A stretch of 63,041 nucleotides of DNA from a bacterium (GTDB taxonomy: Bacteria > Patescibacteriota > Saccharimonadia > Saccharimonadales > Saccharimonadaceae), in the NCBI GenBank assembly GCA_963626095.1, contig CAVFVK010000001.1, positions 1 to 63,041 on the forward strand. Direction: 5' to 3'. Every line of letters starts with the position of its first letter. Position 1 is the stretch's first letter. Of the stretch, positions 14,041 to 36,670 are shown in pieces. A program made the position numbers and the translations under genes. The notes beneath the pieces were generated by a model. It searched no databases and had not been told where the DNA came from. It saw only the letters and a program-made list of their open reading frames with translations.

Positions 14041-14069
14041 TTGACACAAGCACTTTTACACGATATAAT
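14041..14069 (+). promoter_or_regulatory. Consensus sigma70 promoter
   Basis: TTGACA-17-TATAAT. Confidence 0.85.
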
Positions 14070-14075
14070 AGGGGT

Positions 14076-14185
14076 AGCTTCTGAATAAAAAAATTATTCA
14101 AGAAGCCAAACATAAAAATTTAGCCAAAATAACTCCACACTCTACAATAAGACCGGTTTTCCTCGCAGTTACCGGTCTTATTCTA
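14076..14185 (+). ncRNA. Candidate sRNA A
   Basis: Own perfect promoter; 5' hairpin 14077-14106; 3' hairpin 14146-14182; no ORF. Confidence 0.55.
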
Positions 14186-14224
14186 TTGTCAAAAAAATAT
14201 TTTTATGGTAAAATCAAAGCAGTT

Positions 14225-14580
14225 GGGGCTGACAAAGCTTAGACGGGATATTAACAGCTGATGAGGCGTGTCGATTAAATACCGTAAGTATTGAATAAGT
14301 GCTAAAAACACGAAAACTGCGCATGTTGCATACATGCCAGCATTTGCCTAAATAATTCTAGGCTGGTTCGCGTTTGAGATTCCGTAGGACGCGGATTATC
14401 ATATTACGGGATTAAGGCCATTAACGTGGCGTTTAGTGGCTCAAAAACCTAGCCTGCGCGACTATTAGTTTCGTTTTCTGCAGCTAGTAGTATTTGCTAA
14501 GTCGAAACAGAAAACTATGCACGTAGAATCACAGCCAGGTGATATTTCGGACCCGGAGGCAGTATCCGGCAGCTCCACCA
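14225..14580 (+). ncRNA. ssrA: tmRNA; tag (A)AKNTKTAHVAYMPAFA* at 14301-14351
   Basis: 5' GGGGCTG, 3' CAGCTCCACCA with G3:U pair; tag ends in AFA; promoter TTGTCA-17-TAAAAT at 14186-14214. Confidence 0.95.
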
Positions 14581-14681
14581 ATTATCGAATTCACAAAGAC
14601 CACAGTAGAACCGCAAATGCCGTGGGACAACCGCTGAGGCTGTACCATTCGAACCACAATAGAACCGCAGGGGCTGTATCT

Positions 14682-14839
14682 AAACCATAAAATTACGATT
14701 TCGAAGCATGTAAAATTCCCCAGAGAAAAAATCCCACTCCCCGGATTAAAAACTGGATAGTCCCAGTTTTTAATCCGACGGGAGGGGGATTTTTGAACGT
14801 GGCGGAATTTTATCGCTGAGAAATGTAATTTTATGGTTT
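14682..14839. repeat. Long imperfect palindrome
   Basis: AAACCATAAAATTAC/GTAATTTTATGGTTT, AAAAATCCC/GGGATTTTT and CGGATTAAAAACTGG/CCAGTTTTTAATCCG stems. Confidence 0.85.
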
Positions 14840-14943
14840 TTTAGTATATGCCTTATTTACACAAATAACTACCAAACCGAGCTAAAACAAACCATGCCAT
14901 TCCATAATAAAAAACGTCTTCGAAATGCCGGCTTGAGCCAAAC

Positions 14944-15068
14944 GTTGTAAAAAATACAACAAAATGAATAAAAAAGTAGAACAGGGAAGAAATAGCGTAG
15001 TTGTTGTAAAAAATACCTCAATAAACTTGAACAAATCTATTGCTTTTTCGTAAGCAATATGCTATCAT
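14944..15068 (+). promoter_or_regulatory. Two operator-like sites plus promoter
   Basis: GTTGTA-AAAAA-TACAAC (14944-14960), degenerate copy 15003-15019; TTGCTT-17-TATCAT (15040-15068). Confidence 0.55.
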
Positions 15069-15117
15069 TAGGACAGTCGAGATGACTAAAACAAACACTA
15101 AAAACAAAAGGAGCAAA

Positions 15118-15177
15118 ATGCCACGAACCCGACCAAATATCAAGGCAAAAACCAGTAATCAGGCTAGACCAATTTAG
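15118..15177 (+). CDS. Putative 19-aa peptide MPRTRPNIKAKTSNQARPI
   Basis: AAAAGGAG-CAAA-ATG downstream of a promoter. Confidence 0.4.
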   Translation: MPRTRPNIKAKTSNQARPI

Positions 15178-15517
15178 CGAGCGAACAGGTAATTTCTAGC
15201 CATAGATTACAAATAGGAATTACCTCAAGCTCCGCTAAAAAGATATCAAATCTCCGGATATCTAAAAAGCGTCGAGCGCGTAGCCAAATCTTTCATTAGC
15301 ACCTTCTTAAAAAAATAAAACAGAATGAAAGGAAACGGTTGCAAGGACAATGCTTCACTAATCGTGAAGCGGTCAAACGGAAAGGCGGACCGAAGCTCTG
15401 GTCAATAGTAAGTTTTAAAGCGCCGGATAGCTCATCCGCCTCTTCCCATATAAAACCTCACACCAAAACGAGAGATAAAACTTGGGGGTTACCACAGACC
15501 ATGGTATAATCATAAGT

Positions 15518-15871
15518 ATGAAGCAAAAACGTATCATCGGCTTTACTACTGGCATAGGACTCGCAGCCTTATTTCTTATGCTCAGCTTCACATCCCCGAC
15601 GGAAATCGGTCCGTTCGGTGTTTTATTATTTTTTACAACACTTTATGTGTCTTTTTTTGGCATTATGACGCTTTTGCTTCAAGCTTTTAAACGCCTAGCC
15701 TTCAAGCAGGAAATATTAAGACGTAAAGACTATCTTTATTCCGCCGTACTGGCTTTTGGTCCGATTATGCTCCTCATGGCGCGCTCTTTTGGCGCGGTCA
15801 ACCTCTGGACCGGGGCTCTCATTATCGCTTTTCTCGCTTTGGCAGAATTTTTGGTTTATAAGCGAATTTAA
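15518..15871 (+). CDS. Hypothetical 4-TM membrane protein
   Basis: Hydrophobic ORF; TGGTATAAT 7 nt before ATG. Confidence 0.75.
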   Translation: MKQKRIIGFTTGIGLAALFLMLSFTSPTEIGPFGVLLFFTTLYVSFFGIMTLLLQAFKRLAFKQEILRRKDYLYSAVLAFGPIMLLMARSFGAVNLWTGALIIAFLALAEFLVYKRI

Positions 15872-15907
15872 TCTACTAAAAATTCCAAAATATGCTAAAA
15901 TAAGCAT

Positions 15908-16546
15908 ATGAATTATGGTCAAACATCCTCTGATCAAACAACTGATTTGAACTCTGATTTTGAGCTCGATAATTTTAATCTCAACACTAATGAATGGGGT
16001 ATTTCCACCCCTGAACAGAGCCGACGTACCCTTGGCAGTAGCGCCATTAATCACGCCTCAGAAACCACCATCGAAACAACCGCCCCCACTAGAGCAAACG
16101 ACGACCTAGCGCCGCATTCATCCGACTTTGCCTCAGCAACCTATGAAACTCCAGCCCGCCAAAATTCCTATGAAAACACCCCGGCTCTCGGTCAAATCAC
16201 CCCTAATTTTCCGCCCGGCTATCAACCTCCCCTAGAAACCTCTACGTCTCCTCAAATCACTACAACCACTCACTCTGGTCTGTTAGAAATCGCTCAAAAA
16301 GCCCACAATGATCAAAGTCTCAGCCTCAGCGACGCAAAAACTATCGATTCTGCCATTGCCGACCTCGGTCATAGCAGCGATATCGACACTTTTTACGAGC
16401 AAATTCGCGCCGACGCCGACAGCTTCGCTCATTCCGAAAACCACGCCGACAGCCTCGCCCCTTCCAAAGACCATGCCGACACTAAGTATAACGGCGCAAA
16501 CACCAACTCTCGCACCCTCATCAACCCCACGGAGGGGAAGCAATAA
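15908..16546 (+). CDS. Hypothetical Ser/Thr/Pro-rich protein
   Basis: 212 aa; TAATG overlap with the next gene. Confidence 0.7.
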   Translation: MNYGQTSSDQTTDLNSDFELDNFNLNTNEWGISTPEQSRRTLGSSAINHASETTIETTAPTRANDDLAPHSSDFASATYETPARQNSYENTPALGQITPNFPPGYQPPLETSTSPQITTTTHSGLLEIAQKAHNDQSLSLSDAKTIDSAIADLGHSSDIDTFYEQIRADADSFAHSENHADSLAPSKDHADTKYNGANTNSRTLINPTEGKQ

Positions 16547-19077
16547 TGTCTACTTGGGTGGTCATCTTAATTATTGTCGTTGCCGTCATTTTGCTCGGTA
16601 CCCTACTTTTTGGTTCCCGTATCAGTAAACTCAGAAAATCCAAAAAATACGAAAGTGGTCTCAAGATGAAATCACTCCTTATTCACCTCCCTCCGACCAC
16701 CGATGATATTGACTCCGGCTCAAGAGACAAGCGCGACGTTACACTGGAAGCCGTCTCTAAAGCCCAGGTCATGTATTCCATCCTCTCCTCGGTCAAAGCC
16801 AAAGATGATTTTAAGTCTAAACTTTACGGTCAACCCCATTTTTCCTTCGAGATCATCGCGAAGGACGGTTTTACCAAATACTACGCTATTGTTCCCGAAA
16901 AATACGTCGAAACCGTAAAACAAGCCATCCAATCCGCCTACCCCACCGCTAGACTGGAAGAAAAACGCGAAGACAATATTTTCAGGGGTGGCGGCGGTGT
17001 TAACGCTGTGGCTGGCGCGGAATTAACTTTGAACAAAGATTATTATTTGCCAATTGCGACCTACGAAGACACCAAGCGTGACGCCCAAATGGCCCTGCTT
17101 AACGCCATGGCGAACGTTGGGCAAAACGAAGGCGTCGCTGTTCAAATTCTTTTCCGCCCTGCACAAAAAAATTGGTCAGACCAATCCAAAGAACATATCG
17201 AAAATATTCAAAAAGGCAAAAAAACTAAAACCGTCGGGGCAGGAATTGGCGAAATCGCCATGGATATTCTAAAAGCCCCCTGGGAAGTCCCCAAAGAGCA
17301 CGAAAAAAGCGAAGAAACCATTATTTCGAGCATCAAACAAGACGAAATCTCCGCTGTGGCCGCTAAAATGCGTTTTCCGGCCTTCGAGACCCTGATTCGG
17401 GTGGTAGCCAGCTCCGCCTCGAATGCCCGCTCAGAGGCGCTCCTAGGAGGCGTAGTTAGCTCATTTTCGCAATTTAACGCCCCCACGCTCAACGGTTTTA
17501 AAATTAACACCATGAAAGACATGAAAAAACTTGCCGTCGACTACACTTTTCGGGCATTCCCAGTCCGCACCCGCACTAACATTTTAAACTCCGTCGAGCT
17601 CGCCTCTATTTTTCACCTGCCCGAACAGAGTGCTATTCCGAATTCCAGCGTCGAACGCCAGCTCGCCAAACAGGTCGACGGTCCCGCTCGCCTGGCCACC
17701 GAAGGTGTTCTGCTAGGCACCAACGAGTTTCGCGGCACTAAAAAAGCCATCTATCTCGACGACAACAACCGTCGCCGCCATATGTACGTTATCGGGCAAA
17801 CCGGTATGGGTAAATCCGTCTTTCTCGAGAATATCGCCTTTCAGGACATGTGCGACGGCCGCGGATTTGCCTTTATCGACCCCCATGGCGACGCTGTCGA
17901 GGCGATTTTAAAGCGTGTCCCCGAGGAACGTATCGACGACGTCATCTATTTTGACCCCTCCGATATCGAGCATCCAGTCGGTATGAATATGTTTGAATAC
18001 ACCTCCGAAGACCAAAAGGATTTCATCGTCCAAGAGGGAATTAGCATGCTTCAATCTCTGTTTGATCCCAATAACCAAGGCTTTTTCGGTCCCCGTGGTC
18101 AGCACATGTTTAGAAACGCCGCCCTGCTTTTAATGTCCGACCCCGCCGGCGCCACTTTCATCGACATTCCTCAATGTTTCACCGACCCCGAATTCGTCAA
18201 GTCAAAATTAAAATACGTCACCGACAAAGCCGTCTACGACTACTGGACTAAAGAATTTCCACAATCTTTAAAATCCAGCGAATCCGGCGACGTCATTACT
18301 TGGTTCTCGAGCAAATGGGGGCCGTTCATCGCCAACACCATCATGCGAAACACCCTCGGTCAGGTCAAATCCGGCTTCAACATTCGCGAAATCATGGACA
18401 ACAAAAAGATTTTCCTCGTCAACCTCTCCAAGGGTAAACTCGGCGATATCAATTCCAACCTGCTCGGTATGATTTTCGTCATGAAATTCCAGCAAGCCGC
18501 CATGTCTCGCCAGGACATCCCCGAACACGACCGTAAGGACTTCTGTCTCTATGTGGACGAATTCCAGAACTTCGCCACCGATAGTTTCGAATCTATCCTC
18601 TCTGAAGCCCGTAAATATCGCTTAAATCTCATCGTCGCCAACCAATTCATGACCCAGCTCACTGATAAAATCCGAGAAGCCCTGCTCGGTAACGTCGGTA
18701 CGATTATCTGTGGTCGCGTAGGTGTCACCGATGCCGATCTTATGGTCAAAGCCTTCACCCCGACCTTTACCGCCGAAGATTTAACCAAAACCCCGAATTT
18801 CGCCGCCGTCGCCAAAGTCATGATGTTTGATATGCCCTCCGCGCCGTTTACGATCTCCTTGCCACCTCCGATGGGCGAGCCCAATAAGGAACTCATGGAA
18901 ACTCTTAAAATCTATTCCGCCACCAAATTCGCCAAAACTCGCTCTGAAGTCGAAAAAGAAATCAACGACCGCTGGTCCGCTTATCAAAAAACGCCAGAAC
19001 CGCCCGTAGAAGCCCCTAAAACGCCTCGCAAGTCCGAAGGTGGGTTCCTAGACGGCTGGATAAACAAAAGCGCTTAG
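16546..19077 (+). CDS. VirD4/TraG coupling-protein-like (HerA/FtsK superfamily) ATPase
   Basis: N-terminal TM; Walker A GQTGMGKS; IDPHGD; Walker B LYVDEFQNF; SEARKY. Confidence 0.85.
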   Translation: MSTWVVILIIVVAVILLGTLLFGSRISKLRKSKKYESGLKMKSLLIHLPPTTDDIDSGSRDKRDVTLEAVSKAQVMYSILSSVKAKDDFKSKLYGQPHFSFEIIAKDGFTKYYAIVPEKYVETVKQAIQSAYPTARLEEKREDNIFRGGGGVNAVAGAELTLNKDYYLPIATYEDTKRDAQMALLNAMANVGQNEGVAVQILFRPAQKNWSDQSKEHIENIQKGKKTKTVGAGIGEIAMDILKAPWEVPKEHEKSEETIISSIKQDEISAVAAKMRFPAFETLIRVVASSASNARSEALLGGVVSSFSQFNAPTLNGFKINTMKDMKKLAVDYTFRAFPVRTRTNILNSVELASIFHLPEQSAIPNSSVERQLAKQVDGPARLATEGVLLGTNEFRGTKKAIYLDDNNRRRHMYVIGQTGMGKSVFLENIAFQDMCDGRGFAFIDPHGDAVEAILKRVPEERIDDVIYFDPSDIEHPVGMNMFEYTSEDQKDFIVQEGISMLQSLFDPNNQGFFGPRGQHMFRNAALLLMSDPAGATFIDIPQCFTDPEFVKSKLKYVTDKAVYDYWTKEFPQSLKSSESGDVITWFSSKWGPFIANTIMRNTLGQVKSGFNIREIMDNKKIFLVNLSKGKLGDINSNLLGMIFVMKFQQAAMSRQDIPEHDRKDFCLYVDEFQNFATDSFESILSEARKYRLNLIVANQFMTQLTDKIREALLGNVGTIICGRVGVTDADLMVKAFTPTFTAEDLTKTPNFAAVAKVMMFDMPSAPFTISLPPPMGEPNKELMETLKIYSATKFAKTRSEVEKEINDRWSAYQKTPEPPVEAPKTPRKSEGGFLDGWINKSA

Positions 19078-19139
19078 GGCTTGATATTTTGCGTCCTACG
19101 GTGTATAATAGATACGTAAAATAAAGATGAGGTATTTTA

Positions 19140-21125
19140 ATGACTGGAAAAGCTGAAGCATATGATTCATCCGAAATTCGCGTTCTCGAGGGGCTAGAGC
19201 CGGTTCGTCTCCGCCCGGGGATGTATATCGGTTCGACTGGTTATGACGGTCTGCACCATTTGATTAAAGAAATCGCCGATAACGCCATCGACGAAGCCAT
19301 TGCCGGGTTCGCCAACAAGGTAAAAATTACCATTTTGAAAGACGGTGGGGTCTGCGTCGACGATAACGGACGCGGTATCCCTGTCGATATCCACCCTAAA
19401 ACCGGCAAATCCACCCTAGAAACCGTCCTCACGGTCTTACACGCCGGCGGTAAATTCGGCGACGGTGGCTACAAGGTCTCCTCTGGTCTTCACGGGGTCG
19501 GTTCTTCGGTCGTAAACGCCCTTTCTACCCACATGATTGCCGAGGTCTACCGAGAAGGGAAGACCCACCACATCGAATTCGACACCGGTAAACCCACCAT
19601 GGACCTAAAAATCACCAAAGGCGCGCCTCGCGAACACGGCTCATCGATCACTTTTTACCCTGATCCAACGATTTTTAAAGAAACCACGACCTTTGATTTT
19701 AGTTGGGTTTCTTCTTATGCTCGCCACCAAGCTTATCTGACTAAGGGTATTTTAATTGCCGTCGCTGACGAACGCACCGGTGAGCACGAATCTTTCTACT
19801 TCGAAGGCGGTATTAAAAGCTACGTCAAGCGCCTTAATAACGGTAAAGAAGTTCTCTCTGACGACATTTTCTATGTCGATCGCCAAGTTGACGAAACAGG
19901 GGTCGAAATCGCTTTCCAATATAACGACAGCTACGCCGAAACCCTGAAACCTTTCGCTAACAACGTTCTTACCCCTGACGGTGGGATGCACGTAGTCGGT
20001 TTTCGCACGGGACTTACTCGGACAGTTAATGATTACGCCCGTAAAAGTGGTCTGCTCAAAGAAAAAGAGGACAACCTAACCGGCGACGACATTAAAGAAG
20101 GTCTTACCGCTGTAATTTTAGTTAAACTCCCGAACCCTCAGTTCGAGGGTCAGACCAAAAACAAACTCGGCAACCCCGAAGTTCGTGGCATTGTCGACAA
20201 AGTCATGACCGAATATTTCGGCTACTATCTCGAAGAAAATCCAGCCATTGCCAAAAAAATCGTCTCTAAAGCCACCCTGGCCGCCCGCGCCCGTAAAGCC
20301 GCCCGCGCCGCTAGGGATAATGTCATCCGAAAAGGTGCTTTCGAGGGGCTCAATCTGCCCTCCAAACTCGCCGACTGTTCTTCTCGTAACCGCGAAGATT
20401 GCGAACTATTCATCGTCGAGGGTAATTCCGCAGCCGGTTCTGCCAAAGAGGGTCGTAATCCCCAAATCCAGGCTATTTTACCCCTAAGAGGTAAGGTTTT
20501 AAACACCGAGCGCGCTCGTCTTGACAAGATGCTCGCTAACCAAGAGCTAGTCTCCCTGATTAAGGGTCTTGGCGTTGGTATTGGCGACCAATTCAATATC
20601 GACGGCCTAAGATACGACAAAATCATCTTCATGACCGATGCCGATGTCGACGGTCTTCATATCGCGACACTGCTTATGACTTTCTTCTTCCGCTACATGC
20701 CTCAAGTTATCGAACAGGGTCACGTTTACCTTGCTAAACCACCCTTGTTTGGGCTCATCAAAGGCACCGGTAGCGCCCGTAAAATCGACTATCTGTACGA
20801 CGAAACCGCGCTCGAGAACAAATTATCCGAAAAAATCGCCGAAAAACGCAAAAACGGCACCAAAATCGACGAAAATCAAGAACGTTTCAAGCAGGCCGGC
20901 TACACTGCCCAACAGCGGTTTAAAGGTCTCGGTGAAATGGACGCCAAACAACTCTGGGAGACCACTATGGACCCCGAAAATCGTATTCTAGTTCAGGTTC
21001 ATATCGATGACGCTGAAAAAGCTGACGCAGTATTCACGAAATTAATGGGAGACCAGGTCGATCTCCGCAAAAACTTCATTCAGGCTGGCGCTGCATCTGT
21101 TAACCTTGATGATTTGGACTTTTAA
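19140..21125 (+). CDS. gyrB: DNA gyrase subunit B
   Basis: LEGLEPVRLRPGMYIG, GLHGVG, PLRGK, DADVDG, RFKGLGEM. Confidence 0.95.
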   Translation: MTGKAEAYDSSEIRVLEGLEPVRLRPGMYIGSTGYDGLHHLIKEIADNAIDEAIAGFANKVKITILKDGGVCVDDNGRGIPVDIHPKTGKSTLETVLTVLHAGGKFGDGGYKVSSGLHGVGSSVVNALSTHMIAEVYREGKTHHIEFDTGKPTMDLKITKGAPREHGSSITFYPDPTIFKETTTFDFSWVSSYARHQAYLTKGILIAVADERTGEHESFYFEGGIKSYVKRLNNGKEVLSDDIFYVDRQVDETGVEIAFQYNDSYAETLKPFANNVLTPDGGMHVVGFRTGLTRTVNDYARKSGLLKEKEDNLTGDDIKEGLTAVILVKLPNPQFEGQTKNKLGNPEVRGIVDKVMTEYFGYYLEENPAIAKKIVSKATLAARARKAARAARDNVIRKGAFEGLNLPSKLADCSSRNREDCELFIVEGNSAAGSAKEGRNPQIQAILPLRGKVLNTERARLDKMLANQELVSLIKGLGVGIGDQFNIDGLRYDKIIFMTDADVDGLHIATLLMTFFFRYMPQVIEQGHVYLAKPPLFGLIKGTGSARKIDYLYDETALENKLSEKIAEKRKNGTKIDENQERFKQAGYTAQQRFKGLGEMDAKQLWETTMDPENRILVQVHIDDAEKADAVFTKLMGDQVDLRKNFIQAGAASVNLDDLDF

Positions 21126-21134
21126 GGAGAAAAT

Positions 21135-23648
21135 ATGGAAAAAGACGAAAATCTAAACAACCCAACCGACGAAACCGTCGTCAAAGGTATCGAAAAACGT
21201 GGTGTCGAAAACACCATGGAAGAATATTTCCTCAAATATTCTATGTCGGTCATTGTCGACCGTGCGCTTCCCGATGTGCGTGATGGTTTGAAGCCGGTCA
21301 ACCGCCGTATCTTATACACCATGAACAAAAACGGCTGGAAGGCTCCGCACGCGACTGTAAAGTCTGCACGTATCGTCGGTGATGTCATGGGTAAATACCA
21401 CCCGCACGGCGACTCTTCGATTTATATGGCGATGGTCAATCTTGCTCAGCCTTGGAAAATGCGTTATACCCTCATCGAGGGGCAGGGTAACTTCGGTTCG
21501 ATGGACGGTGATGAGCCGGCGGCCTACCGTTATACCGAGGCTCGCATGGACAAAGTCGGTGCTGAACTTTTGACTGACATCGAAAAAGACACCGTTGATT
21601 TTCGTGATAACTTCGACGGCACCGAGCAAGAACCGGTGGTTTTGCCAGCTGCTTTGCCAAACATTCTCTTGAACGGCCAAATGGGCATCGCTGTCGGTAT
21701 GGCGACCAATATTCCGCCGCACAACCTTGGCGAACTTGTCGACGCCACCGTCGCTCAAATCGATAACCCTGAGATCACACTCGACGGCCTGATGAAATAC
21801 GTTAAAGGTCCCGATTTCCCGACCGGTGCCGAAGTCTACGGCGGTGCGCCGATGAAACAAGCTTATGCCACCGGTAAAGGCTCAGTTGTCATTCGTGCCG
21901 TCGCTAATATCGAGGAACGCGCTAAGGGTCGTTATAGTATCGTTGTCACCGAAGTTCCTTATGGTATGAGCAAAGAAGGCTTCATTGAAAAAGTTCGTGA
22001 ACTAGTGATGAATAAAAAACTTGATCACATTGCCGACGCTCGCGACGAGTCTGCTCGAGGTAAAATCCGCATTGTGGTTGAGCTGAAAAAAGACGCTTTC
22101 CCGAAGAAGATTTTGAACCAACTCTACAAAATGACCGGTCTCCAGACCTCTTTCCATTACAATATGTTGGCGCTCGTCGACGGTATTCAGCCTCGTATTC
22201 TGGGTCTCAAAGAAATTCTAGGCGAATTCATCAAACACCGCCAAAAAGTAGTGCGCCGGCGCACCGAATTTGACCTCCGCAAAGCCAAAGAACGCGCTCA
22301 TATCCTCGAGGGGTTAAAAATCGCGCTTGACAATATCGACGAAGTCATTAAAGTCATTCGCGCCTCTTATGATGATGCCGACAAACAACTCATGGCGCGG
22401 TTCGGGCTTTCCGAAATCCAGGCCAACGCTATCCTGCAGATGCAACTACGCCGGCTCCAAGGTCTCGAACGTAGCAAAATCGAAGAAGAATTAAAACAGT
22501 TGCAAGAACTCATCAAAAAACTCGAAGCCATTCTGGCAGACGAAAACGAGATTTTGCGCGTGATCAAAGAGGAGCTTCTCGCCCTCAAAGAAAAATACGG
22601 CGACGAACGACGCTCCAAGATCATTAATCACGAAGCCGACAAGTTCTCCGAGGAGGAACTAATCCCCGAAGAAGAAAGCGTCATTCTTCTGACTTCCGAA
22701 AATTACATGAAACGCGTCCCCCAGACCGATTTCAGAAAGCAAAACCGTGGCGGCAAAGGCAAACGCGGCATGACCACCAAAGAAGAAGACGTCATCGCTC
22801 AAATTCTCACCGCCAATTCGCACGATTTTCTCCTCTTTTTCACCAACCAAGGTCGTTTATTCCGGATGAAGGCTTACGAAGTTCCGCAGGCTTCTCTAAC
22901 CGCCAAAGGCACCGCCGCGGTGAATATGCTCAACATGCATCCAGATGAAAAAATCACCGCCATTATTAAACAGGGCGACGCCGGCGCCGACGGCTACCTC
23001 TTTATGGCGACCAAAAAGGGAACGATCAAGAAAACCGCCATCAAAGATTTCTACAATGTGCGTTCCAACGGTCTCATCGCGATTAAGCTGGCTGACGGTG
23101 ACGAACTCAAATGGGTCCAAGAAACTACTGGCGAAAACGATATCGTAGTCAGTACCTCCGCCGGTCAAGCTACCCGCTTCAACGAAAAAGAAGTACGCGT
23201 CATGGGACGCTCAGCAATGGGCGTTCGCGGCATGCGTCTCCGCCCGAAAGACGAAATTGTCGGCATGGACGTGATTACCGATCCGAAACAAAAGCTCCTT
23301 GCCGTGTCGGCTAATGGTTACGGCAAAGCCACACTGGTGGCTAACTTCCCGCCACATCGTCGTGGTGGTGTCGGTATCAAAGTCGCGACCGTCACCGATA
23401 AAACCGGTCCTATCGTCGCCGTGCATACTCTCGACCCGCTCGCTAAAGAGGTGATTATGATGTCTACTAAGGGTCAAGCCATTCGCGTTGCCATGAAAGA
23501 AATCCCGACTCTCGGTCGCGCTACCCAAGGCGTCCGCATTATGAAGATGAGCGACGGCGATACTGTGGCTTCTATCGGCATCGTATTGCCCGAAGAAGAC
23601 GATTCTGAGGCGGAAACTACCGCCCAGGAAGCCGAAAAAACTGCTTAA
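21135..23648 (+). CDS. gyrA: DNA gyrase subunit A
   Basis: YHPHGD, AAYRYTE (catalytic Tyr), GyrA-box QNRGGKG. Confidence 0.96.
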   Translation: MEKDENLNNPTDETVVKGIEKRGVENTMEEYFLKYSMSVIVDRALPDVRDGLKPVNRRILYTMNKNGWKAPHATVKSARIVGDVMGKYHPHGDSSIYMAMVNLAQPWKMRYTLIEGQGNFGSMDGDEPAAYRYTEARMDKVGAELLTDIEKDTVDFRDNFDGTEQEPVVLPAALPNILLNGQMGIAVGMATNIPPHNLGELVDATVAQIDNPEITLDGLMKYVKGPDFPTGAEVYGGAPMKQAYATGKGSVVIRAVANIEERAKGRYSIVVTEVPYGMSKEGFIEKVRELVMNKKLDHIADARDESARGKIRIVVELKKDAFPKKILNQLYKMTGLQTSFHYNMLALVDGIQPRILGLKEILGEFIKHRQKVVRRRTEFDLRKAKERAHILEGLKIALDNIDEVIKVIRASYDDADKQLMARFGLSEIQANAILQMQLRRLQGLERSKIEEELKQLQELIKKLEAILADENEILRVIKEELLALKEKYGDERRSKIINHEADKFSEEELIPEEESVILLTSENYMKRVPQTDFRKQNRGGKGKRGMTTKEEDVIAQILTANSHDFLLFFTNQGRLFRMKAYEVPQASLTAKGTAAVNMLNMHPDEKITAIIKQGDAGADGYLFMATKKGTIKKTAIKDFYNVRSNGLIAIKLADGDELKWVQETTGENDIVVSTSAGQATRFNEKEVRVMGRSAMGVRGMRLRPKDEIVGMDVITDPKQKLLAVSANGYGKATLVANFPPHRRGGVGIKVATVTDKTGPIVAVHTLDPLAKEVIMMSTKGQAIRVAMKEIPTLGRATQGVRIMKMSDGDTVASIGIVLPEEDDSEAETTAQEAEKTA

Positions 23649-23773
23649 GAAACATAAGCGACTCCCAAAAATTACAGAGGTCAAAACGCTCAAGATAGGT
23701 TTTTAAGACTTTCCGGGTTGCAAAATCCGTAAGCTCGTGTATATACTCCCTCAAACTAACTTGAAAGGAGTAT

Positions 23774-25099
23774 ATGAAAAAACCTTTATCTCTATCAATT
23801 TTAAGCGCCTTTTGGCTCGTCGGGAGTTTGGTCCCGAATTTCGCCTCGGCCGCCTCGAGCGACACCTATTGGACGCTCGAAGAAATGCAAAAATTAAACA
23901 CCGAGGTTATGGCCGAGATTAAAACCGCCTGTGCTGACACCGAAGATTTTATGTGTGCGGATTCGTATCTCTGGCGTAAGGCCAGTAGCGACCCGGCTTA
24001 CAGTGCGCTAATGAACTACCGCGCCTATAACGTCATGATTTCCGCGGCTAATCCCGAACGTCAGACGCTGAAATTGTATTATGACCTTCAGTCGCTTCCG
24101 ACCTGGGAAACTTCGGATCCAACTCTGTCCGACCTCTATGTCGCTCAGTTCGAAGAAGGACATTTTGAAGGCGGTTTCTATCTATTTCTTGAACGGGGCG
24201 AGGAGGCACCGTATACTAATATTCTACTCAACAAACGCAAATCCGTTGACGATAGCGATTGGCTCCCCTTCTATACCGAAGTCGAGTTTGATGTGCCGGG
24301 GCTGTCTGCGAGCGCCGATATGAGCTCGATATTGATGCTATTTTATCGCACCGTCTCGAACATCTCCTATTCTTTCGACTTTCCTCTCGAGAGCTGTCTC
24401 ACTTCGCCGGATTATCAACCGGGCATGGAATGTCGCGCTGTTTTTAGCGCTTCACGAAGGTTCTATTTACCGTTTGCCGTAGAAACCGAGGCCGAAGTTG
24501 AGACCGAAGTTGAGGTCGAACCGGAAGTTGAGCCAGAAATTACGCCCGAGGTCGAACAAGAAACCGAGCCAGAAGAATCAGAGACTAAGCCAGAGATTGA
24601 ACAAGAAGTCGAGACCGAACCCGAGGTCGAGCCTGAGCCGGAGCAATCCGACTTAGAACCCGGCAATACAGACGATGTAGAAAACGCCGAAACTACTGAT
24701 TCCAGCGCGTCTAAAATTACCGAAAAAACAGAGGTAGAACGCGCGGCAACGCCTTCCGACATTACGGCTGCCGCTACAAAAACTACGACCTCGACCCCGC
24801 TCGCGACCTCTGCTACAGTTGCGACATCGGCTCCACAAGCTGATACACTAGCCGACACAAACCAACCCGCTCTTGCATCCGACACTACGACTGACGCATC
24901 CTCGCAGTCCGACGCCACGGCCGACGTTTCTCAGCCGTCGCAAACCGCCACCGACCTCCCTCGACTTGGTGGCAACTGCGAGCAGGGAAGTACTTTTCCG
25001 TGGTGGTTTATTATGCTAGTGCTGGCCTGCGATGCTGTAATTATGTGGTTTTTCTGGCCAAAACGCGAAAAAACACAAAAAAATACAAAAAAGTCCTAA
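23774..25099 (+). CDS. Surface protein with signal peptide, Glu/Pro- and Thr/Ala-rich stalk, C-terminal anchor
   Basis: Signal peptide ending ASA; EPEVE repeats; LPRLG then TM then KREK...KKS tail. Confidence 0.8.
   Translation: MKKPLSLSILSAFWLVGSLVPNFASAASSDTYWTLEEMQKLNTEVMAEIKTACADTEDFMCADSYLWRKASSDPAYSALMNYRAYNVMISAANPERQTLKLYYDLQSLPTWETSDPTLSDLYVAQFEEGHFEGGFYLFLERGEEAPYTNILLNKRKSVDDSDWLPFYTEVEFDVPGLSASADMSSILMLFYRTVSNISYSFDFPLESCLTSPDYQPGMECRAVFSASRRFYLPFAVETEAEVETEVEVEPEVEPEITPEVEQETEPEESETKPEIEQEVETEPEVEPEPEQSDLEPGNTDDVENAETTDSSASKITEKTEVERAATPSDITAAATKTTTSTPLATSATVATSAPQADTLADTNQPALASDTTTDASSQSDATADVSQPSQTATDLPRLGGNCEQGSTFPWWFIMLVLACDAVIMWFFWPKREKTQKNTKKS
24705..24746 (+). repeat. 42-bp coding repeat, copy 1
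   Basis: 39/42 identical to the copy in topA (60188-60229, minus). Confidence 0.85.
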
Positions 25100-25106
25100 A
25101 AACCTG

Positions 25107-25135
25107 TTGACAACTCCCGCAGCTTTTGATAAAAT
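25107..25135 (+). promoter_or_regulatory. 16S rRNA promoter
   Basis: TTGACA-17-TAAAAT with upstream A-tracts. Confidence 0.85.
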
Positions 25136-25251
25136 AAGAACAGTCTGAAGCTGCGAGAGTTATTTTACCAGTCTTTGGAAATAGTTTAACAATTTAGTTG
25201 TGCAATTAATCATCGTCAGTTTTACTTTATGAGTTTGAACAAACTTATACT

Positions 25252-26787
<1,536 letters not shown>

Positions 26788-26948
26788 TTGAGAAGGAATT
26801 GATGCGCTTGATTTTCACCAGAAAAACAAGTAGCTAGGTCGGTTACGGTTGTGTTAAAAAGCTTATAATACAACAATTCTATTTATAGACGTAACATTTA
26901 AGCTAAACTAACTGCCGATGAATTGCACAACTAAGTTGTTAACAAACA

Positions 26949-26974
26949 AAAAACTGCCCGAAACGGCAGTTTTT
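26949..26974 (+). terminator. Intrinsic terminator after 16S
   Basis: AAAAACTGCC-CGAAAC-GGCAGTTTTT. Confidence 0.85.
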
Positions 26975-27001
26975 GGTATAATAAGGCAAAGGAGACATTT
27001 T

Positions 27002-27307
27002 ATGCCTAAAAACAAAGAAACCAACAACAAAAATTTCATCCCTGGCACCAACCCGACTTGGGGTTACGAAGTACCAGACGGTTACACCAATTCTATGGTC
27101 GACAAAAAAGGCCGCGTCGTCGACACGGGTTGGAATTTTGACGAAAAAGACGACGACTGGGGCGGGGAACTGACCGACGAAGAGCGGGCTACTTTTGAGT
27201 CGTTCAAAAATATCGCCGACGACTGCCCTTTCGACCCCGAAGTCGCAAGAGAGCTCGCCAAGCAAGCCGACGAGCGCAACGCCCACCACGGCGAGAACGA
27301 AGCTTAA
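27002..27307 (+). CDS. Hypothetical acidic protein
   Basis: SD AAGGAG; own TGGTATAAT; 101 aa. Confidence 0.7.
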   Translation: MPKNKETNNKNFIPGTNPTWGYEVPDGYTNSMVDKKGRVVDTGWNFDEKDDDWGGELTDEERATFESFKNIADDCPFDPEVARELAKQADERNAHHGENEA

Positions 27308-27360
27308 ACAAATACAACGCTCGCACCACTTCCTCGGGGTTTATGTTATAATAGACTGAT

Positions 27361-27885
27361 ATGGAAGACTCCCGCAATTTGATTGATGCCTACAAAGGTT
27401 TGACCAACGAACAAGTTTTTGATGCGCTGAGCAAAACTCGCATCTCGCTCGAAATCGCCATCGAAAACCTTGAGCACGATTTTAATATCGGCTCGATTGT
27501 TCGCACCGCCAACTCTTTTAATGTCGAAAAGGTCCATATCATCGGCAAGAAAAAATATAATCGGCGTGGCGCAATGTGCACGGATAAATATCTCGAAATT
27601 GTTCATCACACGACCGTCACGGATTTTCTCGCAAGCCAAAGCAACCGCGAGCTAGTCGCCATCGAAAACAACGTTAAGGACACTAAGCCTCTGCACGACA
27701 AAAAATTCACGCCAAACACCACCTTGATCTTTGGCTCGGAAGGGAACGGACTTTCCGAAGAATTATTAAACCACGTTCACGACTGTCGATTTATCGAAAG
27801 CTTCGGCTCGACCCGCTCCGTCAATGTTGGAGTTGCCGCCGGCATCGCCATGTACGAGTATGTGCGCCAAATTGTCCTAGTATAG
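27361..27885 (+). CDS. TrmH/SpoU (SPOUT) RNA methyltransferase
   Basis: FNIGSIVRTA, LIFGSEGNGLS, SVNVGVAAGIAMYE. Confidence 0.92.
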   Translation: MEDSRNLIDAYKGLTNEQVFDALSKTRISLEIAIENLEHDFNIGSIVRTANSFNVEKVHIIGKKKYNRRGAMCTDKYLEIVHHTTVTDFLASQSNRELVAIENNVKDTKPLHDKKFTPNTTLIFGSEGNGLSEELLNHVHDCRFIESFGSTRSVNVGVAAGIAMYEYVRQIVLV

Positions 27886-27980
27886 TCAACGCCGCCCCCA
27901 AGCTCTAAAATCCCAAATCCCCGCATTTTCGCTATAAATCCTTTACTTTTTCCATCTTTTTTGGTAAAATAACATAACAA

Positions 27981-28057
27981 GGGGCAATAGCTCAGCTGAT
28001 TAGAGCGCTGCCTTTGCAAGGCAGAGGTCCTGGGTTTGAATCCCAGTTGCTCCACCA
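27981..28057 (+). tRNA. tRNA-Ala(TGC)
   Basis: Cloverleaf with G3:U70; anticodon TGC; atypical D-loop GA and T-loop TTTGAAT. Confidence 0.92.
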
Positions 28058-28113
28058 TAAACACTTCGCACAAGGCCTAGCCTTAGCAAACCTTGCGCCG
28101 TTCCTTATAACTT

Positions 28114-28190
28114 GGGGATATAGCTCAGCTGGTTAGAGCGCGTCACTGATAATGACGAGGTCTGTGGTTCAAGTCCACATATCCCCACCA
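28114..28190 (+). tRNA. tRNA-Ile(GAT)
   Basis: CGTCA-CT-GAT-AA-TGACG anticodon arm; CCA end. Confidence 0.95.
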
Positions 28191-28204
28191 CTTTAAGCTT
28201 CTAG

Positions 28205-28228
28205 AAACACTCTTCGGGGTGTTTTTTT
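28205..28228 (+). terminator. Intrinsic terminator after tRNAs
   Basis: AAACACTC-TTCG-GGGTGTTT-TTTT. Confidence 0.8.
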
Positions 28229-28232
28229 GACC

Positions 28233-28317
28233 AAAAAGAAAACCGCCTATTTCTAAGCGGCTTTCTTCAGGTCATACATTAGGTTAAACAGCCTCGCAGT
28301 TGGTACTGTTTAAACTA
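28233..28317 (-). ncRNA. Candidate sRNA B
   Basis: Minus-strand TTGACA-17-TAAAAT (28351-28323); hairpin TTAAACAGT/GCTGTTTAA; terminator AAGAAAGCCGC/GCGGTTTTCTT-TTT. Confidence 0.6.
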
Positions 28318-28440
28318 CCTCTATTTTATCTCACCATATGCATATTGTCAATAGCTTTTTTCCACAATTTGTGCAAAACTTTTACAAAAAGTGTTCGGGA
28401 AAATTAAAAATATTAAAACACATTTTTTAGAATTAGCATA

Positions 28441-28511: not shown

Positions 28512-28712
28512 ATGGCAGGTACTAAAGCGGGCGGCATGAAAGCTGCTGCTACCAACAAAGCTAAATACGGCAAAGAGTTTTACGCTCAAATCGGCAAAAA
28601 AGGCGGCCAAAATGGTCATACTGGCGGTTTCGCAGCTAACCCAGAGTTAGCACGCATCGCTGGTGCTAAAGGCGGTCGAATTTCTCGCCGCGGGCCAGCG
28701 AAAAAGGCTTAA
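28512..28712 (+). CDS. KGG-repeat general stress protein
   Basis: IGKKGG...AGAKGG repeats; SD CAGGAG. Confidence 0.85.
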   Translation: MAGTKAGGMKAAATNKAKYGKEFYAQIGKKGGQNGHTGGFAANPELARIAGAKGGRISRRGPAKKA

Positions 28713-36460: not shown

Positions 36461-36670
36461 TGGCTCCCCCGGCCAGACTCGCACCGAAGGTCCGACGTCT
36501 GCCCCTTTTTGACGTTTTTTCATAAAAAAATGGCTCCCCCGGCCAGACTCGCACCGAAGGTCCGACGTCTGCCCCTTTTTGACGTTTTTTCATAAAAAAA
36601 TGGCTCCCCCGGCCAGACTCGCACCGAAGGTCCGACGTCTGCCCCTTTTTGACGTTTTTTCATAAAAAAA
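36461..36670. repeat. Three identical 70-bp tandem units, each carrying the 3' 21 nt of tRNA-Asn
   Basis: Units start at 36461, 36531 and 36601; TGGCTCCCCCGGCCAGACTCG is shared with the tRNA end at 36671. Confidence 0.95.

Follow-up and report, generated by a model that had tools for sequence, protein, structure and literature searches.

How are two small RNA genes related that lie 14 kb apart on one contig and expose exactly complementary 10-nt loops? The window—the whole stretch of 63,041 nucleotides analysed here—is contig C1 of a 661-kb genome (47% GC), and the closest named relatives of this genome are Candidatus Nanosyncoccus of the Saccharibacteria, bacteria with very small genomes that live on other bacteria. 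A sequence-only reading of the window had proposed the two genes, here called RNA A and RNA B, as a trans-acting kissing-loop pair of a regulator and its sponge. The evidence points to a seed-pairing network instead of a private A–B pair: RNA A would be a base-pairing regulator with its seed in a hairpin loop, and RNA B and a further small RNA, RNA C, would be target-mimic sponges. We give this reading a probability of about 0.5. The terms genus, family f1 and order denote groupings of the genome collection used for the comparisons; the order-level sample consists of 151 genomes, and one unpublished genome is included in the tally of RNA A.

Both RNAs are stand-alone genes with their own promoter and terminator, and both are kept in relatives. 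The promoters, the separate terminator of RNA B and the placement of the motifs in the loops are as the sequence-only reading described them. RNA A folds into two hairpins (fold z-score −6.09), and its 10-mer CCTCGCAGTT at 14161–14170 lies within the 13-nt loop of the 3′ hairpin. RNA B, encoded on the minus strand, has a fold z-score of −5.33 overall—its 5′ hairpin taken by itself is weak (z −0.93)—and 9 of the 10 nt of its motif lie in the loop of this hairpin in the centroid structure. The predicted unpaired probability is 0.91 for the motif of A and 0.74 for that of B. The start and end of RNA A were inferred from its promoter and terminator. A first terminator scan, with its limits on loop and stem, called the terminator of neither RNA; a second scripted search called both. 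Neither RNA contains a complete open reading frame (ORF) of at least 20 amino acids on its own strand. The covariance models of Rfam 15 (including 6S, SRP, CsrB, and RsaE) gave no match over RNA A or B at the gathering threshold, and the best sub-threshold scores over A and B (expectation values, E, of 1.2 and 0.55) belong to unrelated families. In small shares of four RNA runs, the tmRNA of relatives is covered deeply; one contig with a depth of about 2.6 overlies the 3′ half of RNA A in one run, which is no evidence of transcription. Judged by conservation alone, A and B are very probably real non-coding RNA genes.

The first model of RNA A found 13 of the 151 order genomes, and the model rebuilt from those found 135, nearly all with a single copy (E up to 0.01, E-values being rough). 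The order loci that were read are syntenic with smpB, tmRNA, and comM. Of the 30 genus loci, one is truncated, and the 29 whose loop is covered all read CCTCGCAGT. Covariation is seen in the stems: among 26 sequences, both sides have changed in 8 of 20 pairs, and 93% of cells are paired compared with 34–53% upon sliding. Across the order, CUCGCA occurs in or directly after the hairpin in 64 of 65 loci read and is absent in one. A metagenome scan was queried with the 5′ domain only—the loop being unused—and returned at least 120 stretches, 114 of them distinct. Among the matches listed, 113 of 114 homologues are preceded by a promoter-like site, 112 of 114 carry CUCGCA within 42 different stems, 102 of 112 read through into a long A/C-rich tail, and 12 of 112 contain a second CUCGCA, mostly in the final terminator loop. 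With its 5′ domain and its loop word both fixed across homologues, A is an order-wide RNA. In two genomes of family f24 (G059 and G123), the loop of A has lost the word, and one copy stands directly downstream. A draw of 151 genomes from the phylum gave 10 matches, seven in the order and three weak ones outside it, with one A-like 3′ end; a viral scan gave four matches, none of them an A gene. RNA A is not the leader of the neighboring tmRNA, since the latter has its own promoter and is inverted or farther off in some relatives. The tmRNA itself (14225–14580) matches Rfam with 96 bits and was missed by ARAGORN. Two further observations concern the shape of A. In family f37, a second A-like locus (L234 of G132:C3 and L277 of G169:C1) features the A/C-rich linker and a CUCGCA terminator loop and is without the 5′ hairpin. 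Outside the order, the 3′ end of a gene (L351:1540–1610, G216) carries ACUCCAC and a CUCGCA terminator loop, resembling the 3′ half of A.

RNA B is distributed more narrowly. Among 30 genus loci, 26 feature CUGCGAG in the promoter-proximal hairpin, one is cut by a contig end, and three are without B; at one of these three, the UGCGAG word stands in the leader of the divergent KGG-repeat gene instead. The stem covaries (both sides altered in 6 of 10 pairs across 23 sequences) around an invariant loop core. In two sister genera, the word is shifted to the terminator loop, and at order level it is found on the B strand in 3 of 30 loci, all of family f1. Sites resembling a LexA box upstream of B were counted, and none was clean. 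The leaders of the KGG-repeat genes (L363–L392) share an order-wide GAGGGT motif with a nearby CCC or CCUC partner, likely a cis-regulatory hairpin. A leader at G000:C4:3034–3120 carries short complements to the loop of B and to its UAUGACC stretch, in parallel order.

The complementarity of the two loops is kept in homologues: in all 21 genomes in which both loops were read, of 25 examined, A and B match over 7–10 contiguous bases, and in 13 of the 21 the match is a perfect 10 bases. The window contains just two copies of the 10-mer, as does the whole genome, a count near chance (order-5 Markov expectation 1.05), and one-mismatch matches in the window number 5 versus 3.7 in shuffles. The A–B match thus exceeds chance on account of both loops being conserved inside varying stems and not on account of its count.

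The same complement is exposed elsewhere. RNA C, located before rpoB, has its own promoter and terminator, and CUGCGAG is retained at 24 of its 25 genus loci. It features, in addition, an invariant ACUGCGAG, a second kept word GUUGAGAG, and often CGUUG in the terminator loop, and it is the second-best genome match of the B profile (E 0.014). Its match to A spans 8–11 bases in 20 genomes of 25 examined, equal to that of B. In a further element, D, UGCGAG occupies the loop of the terminator that ends a surface-protein gene beside tsf or rpmE, in 10 of 30 loci. The best-kept mRNA site is the leader of orfX: UGCGAG lies over the Shine–Dalgarno sequence in a hairpin loop in 75 of 76 genus leaders (4 of 80 loci were too short), with a predicted unpaired probability of 0.84, and in 10 of 29 leaders in the order. 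Loop-only duplex energies with A are −17.1 kcal/mol for B, −17.6 for D, −14.2 for C, and −12.6 for orfX. A private A–B pair, of a toxin–antitoxin-like or copy-control-like kind, would suit the perfect match in 13 genomes and the similarity of the two promoter regions. C, however, matches A as well as B does, mRNA sites carry the word, A is order-wide as opposed to family-level B, and neither RNA holds an ORF of at least 20 amino acids. The pair is therefore not exclusive, and a private pair is largely refuted and very improbable. The proposed kissing of A and B remains the best-supported reading; their exclusiveness does not.

The UGCGAG word is also found, with less regularity, at further gene starts. 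At the start of rpoB it is present in 3 of 9 genomes, all three from sister genera, and it occurs sporadically in the leaders of rpsB, groES, dnaK, and 16S rRNA, sites that did not prove conserved. The arm of groES that carries the word is CIRCE-like; a hand count gave 23 CIRCE-type promoter matches with the word, with groES confirmed downstream for 5. In 645 upstream windows, TGCGAG ranks first among 120 letter permutations (17 versus a mean of 4.8), and the pattern of a promoter followed by TGCGAG gave about 140 matches versus about 75 for a reversed control that is not promoter-shaped (hand count). Target scans with the linker of A and with UAUGACCU of B returned generic G/U-rich matches only.

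Together, these features suggest the following mechanism. RNA A would act in trans throughout the order by a 6–7-base CUCGCA seed in a hairpin loop, where CUCG at the start of the loop matches the YUNR U-turn pattern. The loop would kiss RNAs that expose UGCGAG. Putative mRNA targets would carry the word in the leader or over the Shine–Dalgarno sequence—orfX; rpoB in sister genera; and, sporadically, rpsB, groES, and the 16S leader—and pairing there may block initiation or alter decay. B and C would be stand-alone target mimics, added by the gut-associated family to titrate A. The basis in hand is sequence, structure by covariation, conservation, complementarity, and predicted accessibility; from it we infer transcription, binding, and the direction and sign of control.

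Several observations weigh against such a regulator with its sponges. The cores of both seeds are invariant, and no compensatory change is found between A and any partner; with both cores invariant, covariation of the two loops is uninformative. The core of a partner can change while A stays unchanged, as in the orfX leader of G332 (CGCGAG) and in RNA C of G020 (CUGCGAA). At orfX, the seventh seed position follows no matching trend (C 2, T 4, and A 7 in CUCGCAG genomes; C 1 and T 3 in CUCGCAA genomes). An earlier hand tally had placed C before TGCGAG in CUCGCAG genomes and T in CUCGCAA genomes (17:5 versus 3:24); it did not repeat in this one-gene test and is discounted, since the sites were selected visually, the two groups differ in gene class, and kin are not independent. 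The orfX site is found in 11 of 17 CUCGCAG genomes versus 4 of 29 CUCGCAA genomes—kin again not being independent, and three leaders having been picked for the word—so that most orfX leaders in the latter group are without UGCGAG. For RNA C, two competing folds are predicted (local in 9, distal in 14), and the motif is frequently paired (unpaired probability 0.59). Both groES as a general target (2 of 28, both in the CIRCE-like arm, in a sample of mostly earlier non-hits) and the 16S leader as a conserved partner (the word in 1 of 30 order genomes) were rejected. Seven of the 17 TGCGAG upstream windows belong to one gene, and upstream of genes in the own genome TGCGAG is not enriched (5 of 578, mean 4.1). 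G162 carries A without CUCGCA, and most of the order has A with no known B or C.

The last point suits another explanation, by which A is a housekeeping or protein-titrating RNA, its CUCGCA loop being bound by a protein or the ribosome, and UGCGAG is a separate signal whose complementarity is secondary or accidental. The 5′ domain of A, a candidate protein-binding part, is near-invariant too, and the A/C-rich read-through tail and the occasional repetition of the loop among the matches listed fit as well, as does the lack of B or C at the tested loci of most order genomes. The explanation is improbable: four unrelated genus elements—B, C, D, and the orfX leader—keep the exact complement exposed.

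Invariant motifs without covariation are equally suited to recognition by a protein, and a candidate is encoded by orfX itself. OrfX occurs in 147 of 151 order genomes and has 1136 representatives at E 0.001, with no Pfam family and no sequence relative in the PDB. Its structural model (pLDDT 83) features a long helix and two barrels similar to OB and cold-shock folds. Closest in fold are RNase R, through its cold-shock domains (Z 8.4, root-mean-square deviation 2.2 over 58 residues), and the RNA-binding domain of Rho (Z 6.5); a Foldseek search was not significant (best E 1.1e-3). The Atlas label of this protein is a mislabel, and the model suggests a candidate RNA-binding protein with UGCGAG in its own leader. 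In a CsrA/CsrB-like arrangement, an RNA-binding protein, plausibly OrfX, would read UGCGAG, with B and C as decoys and A at most a masking antisense RNA. The near-universal occurrence of OrfX and the rank of its leader among the mRNA sites speak for this, and a search of 5 genomes yielded no CsrA in any of them (controls gave a signal in 3 of 14), so the role is vacant. Such a protein leaves the exact complement in the loop of an order-wide RNA unexplained; B carries one motif and not many; and the fold match of OrfX is middling, with no specificity shown by the fold. The arrangement is unlikely but a serious rival. Many orfX leaders of the order without UGCGAG share a hairpin whose arms resemble the 5′ hairpin of A in swapped order, followed by GAGAG. 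A bolder proposal, which we regard as quite doubtful, unites A and OrfX in a Patescibacteria-specific particle, with OrfX as the missing RNA chaperone, A shutting core expression off-host, and lineage-specific sponges of the B/C type waking the epibiont. If true, A would be a global switch on RNA polymerase, ribosome, chaperones, and OrfX itself.

A shared DNA site had also been considered for the two loci, and here the regions around the promoters bear on the question. As proposed, both promoters have TGTGGAAAA upstream; this word is not specific to the pair, as it occurs in 34 genome copies versus 15 expected and, being common, is no marker of A and B. Upstream of A it is kept in the genus and not in the same form elsewhere in the order. 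Read on the opposite strand, it matches the DnaA-box consensus TTWTNCACA, and it could couple both promoters to the state of replication. A different DNA reading takes TGCGAG/CTCGCA itself as a double-stranded site, to which a transcription factor would bind shortly downstream of promoters or which would be read once extruded as a cruciform. A single mechanism would then cover both orientations and the lack of covariation, and within 60 nt downstream of intergenic promoters in the own genome the word is found at 4 of 101, all on the sense strand. Yet the stems whose loops hold the word covary as RNA, with G–U pairs favoring the predicted strands; the word lies about 90 nt from the start in A and at a gene 3′ end in D; and it moves between hairpins within orthologous RNAs. 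A DNA site is thus less likely than pairing between RNAs, and distinctly improbable.

The features are collected in Table 1.

Table 1. Coordinates of RNA A, RNA B, and associated features (window positions unless a contig is named)
Feature	Position	Strand	Remarks
First TGTGGAAAA	13995..14003	+	37 nt before the −35 of A; conserved upstream of A within the genus
Sigma-70-type promoter of RNA A	14041..14069	+	TTGACA-17-TATAAT, 12/12
RNA A, order-wide small RNA gene	14076..14185	+	Promoter, terminator, fold, conservation
RNA A 5′ domain: hairpin with A-rich loop, then A/C-rich run	14077..14118	+	Highly conserved across the order
C/A-rich single-stranded linker ACUCCAC, anti-Shine–Dalgarno-like	14131..14145	+	Near-invariant within the genus; in other families shorter or missing
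RNA A 3′ hairpin (terminator in this family)	14146..14185	+	CUCGCA seed 14162–14167 in loop
Neighbor of A: own promoter 14186–14214 and tmRNA 14225–14580	14186..14580	+	Outside A
CTGCGAG at start of 16S rRNA leader	25151..25157	+	Possible partner site, poorly conserved
Intrinsic terminator of B	28233..28268	−	Tail-to-tail with tRNA-Ala/tRNA-Ile
RNA B, family-level small RNA gene, candidate sponge	28233..28317	−	Fold, conservation
Single-stranded conserved UAUGACCU of B ahead of terminator	28269..28276	−	Conservation
RNA B 5′ hairpin, invariant CUGCGAG (28299–28293) in loop	28284..28314	−	Stem covariation, loop core fixed
Promoter of RNA B	28323..28351	−	TTGACA-17-TAAAAT, 11/12; kept in the genus and two sister genera
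Second TGTGGAAAA	28358..28366	−	6 nt before the −35 of B
KGG-repeat small protein gene, divergent from B, synteny anchor	28515..28712	+	PF10685, E 7.5e-10; at all 30 B loci
RNA C, small RNA before rpoB	G000:C4:26985-26895	−	Own promoter and terminator (L061, L064–L088)
orfX, 172 amino acids, tandem OB-fold protein	G000:C5:11055-11582 (L172)		Atlas label 'L7/L12'

Further observations were made around these loci. The block of rpmE and rpsB–tsf (L094–L123) has two arrangements in the genus, so the terminator of D follows tsf or rpmE. A supposed A-like terminator of tsf was rejected: it is that of a convergent gene, on whose strand its fold is better in 8 of 10 cases. A candidate small RNA near dprA/topA (L159 in G046 and L165 in G182) features UGCGAG in its first hairpin loop and common downstream blocks; it has no match in the own genome. 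In the region 25252–28190 of the window, the 16S rRNA is without a 23S rRNA; two ORFs stand before tRNA-Ala/tRNA-Ile, and leader and trailer form a long processing stem. In G087, G041, G047, G058, G156, and G177 (L289, L311), the first 16S bases recur, exactly or in drifted form, about 120 nt upstream of the true start. Tandem repeats of about 70–75 bases adjoin tRNA gene ends (window 36480–36670; G000:C23:5670–5900). A GC-rich hairpin RNA candidate of about 50 nt, from promoter to U-tract, is found at G000:C9:1650–1590 (L173).

The RNA family is real and apparently undescribed: RNA A, its core member, occurs order-wide, and its partners are of family level. It would work in the manner of a seed small RNA with sponges, and it corresponds to no listed family. 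A literature search, with subscription papers mostly outside it, found no description of RNA A and no regulatory small RNA reported for Saccharibacteria. An RNA present in about nine-tenths of the order genomes, with a seed, candidate targets, and natural sponges, offers a handle on post-transcriptional control, and OrfX is flagged as a candidate RNA-binding factor. Oral Saccharibacteria are cultured and genetically tractable, so the model is testable.

Among known systems, CsrA/RsmA and their decoys CsrB/RsmZ use a short GGA word at ribosome-binding sites and in small-RNA loops. The present system likewise places one short word at both; the word is UGCGAG, an RNA with its exact complement exists, and CsrA was not found in the 5 genomes tested. 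A bearing on the novelty of RNA A comes from HMP2_4405, a 38-nt candidate structure that Fremin and Bhatt (2021, PMC8040213) list for Ca. Saccharimonas, at most 5 kb from smpB. It could be one hairpin of A; in their table it is entered without function, partner, or full-length RNA.

The YUNR U-turn, defined in PMC6562991, is a feature of kissing-loop antisense pairs such as hok/Sok and bsrG/SR4. These pairs are cis-encoded, have long complementarity, and involve a toxin or replication gene, whereas A and B lie 14 kb apart with a longest perfect match of 10 bases, and 7–11 bases are shared within the system; a loop–loop first contact, predicted here, and CUCG in the loop of A are what they have in common. 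The cuckoo RNAs of alphaproteobacteria carry CCUCCUCCC in each of 2–4 adjacent hairpin loops (PMC4615179). Similar to A, they feature a fixed loop motif in variable stems and a number of motif hairpins that varies between lineages; A differs by its word CUCGCA, by a single motif hairpin in 100 of 112 homologues among the matches listed, and by a different 5′ domain ahead. A parallel in logic is found in Bacillus subtilis, where RosA sponges RoxS via complementary single-stranded seeds (PMC8216469). Compared with RoxS/RsaE, the seed CUCGCA is not a C-run, there is no sequence or Rfam relation, the phylum is another, and the pairing is predicted; compared with RosA, B offers one site, in a hairpin loop. 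In both systems, a conserved small RNA features a short C-rich seed that also matches mRNA start regions, and a stand-alone, less widely conserved partner exposes complementary G-rich stretches—here, on the predicted structures, with both complementary seeds exposed.

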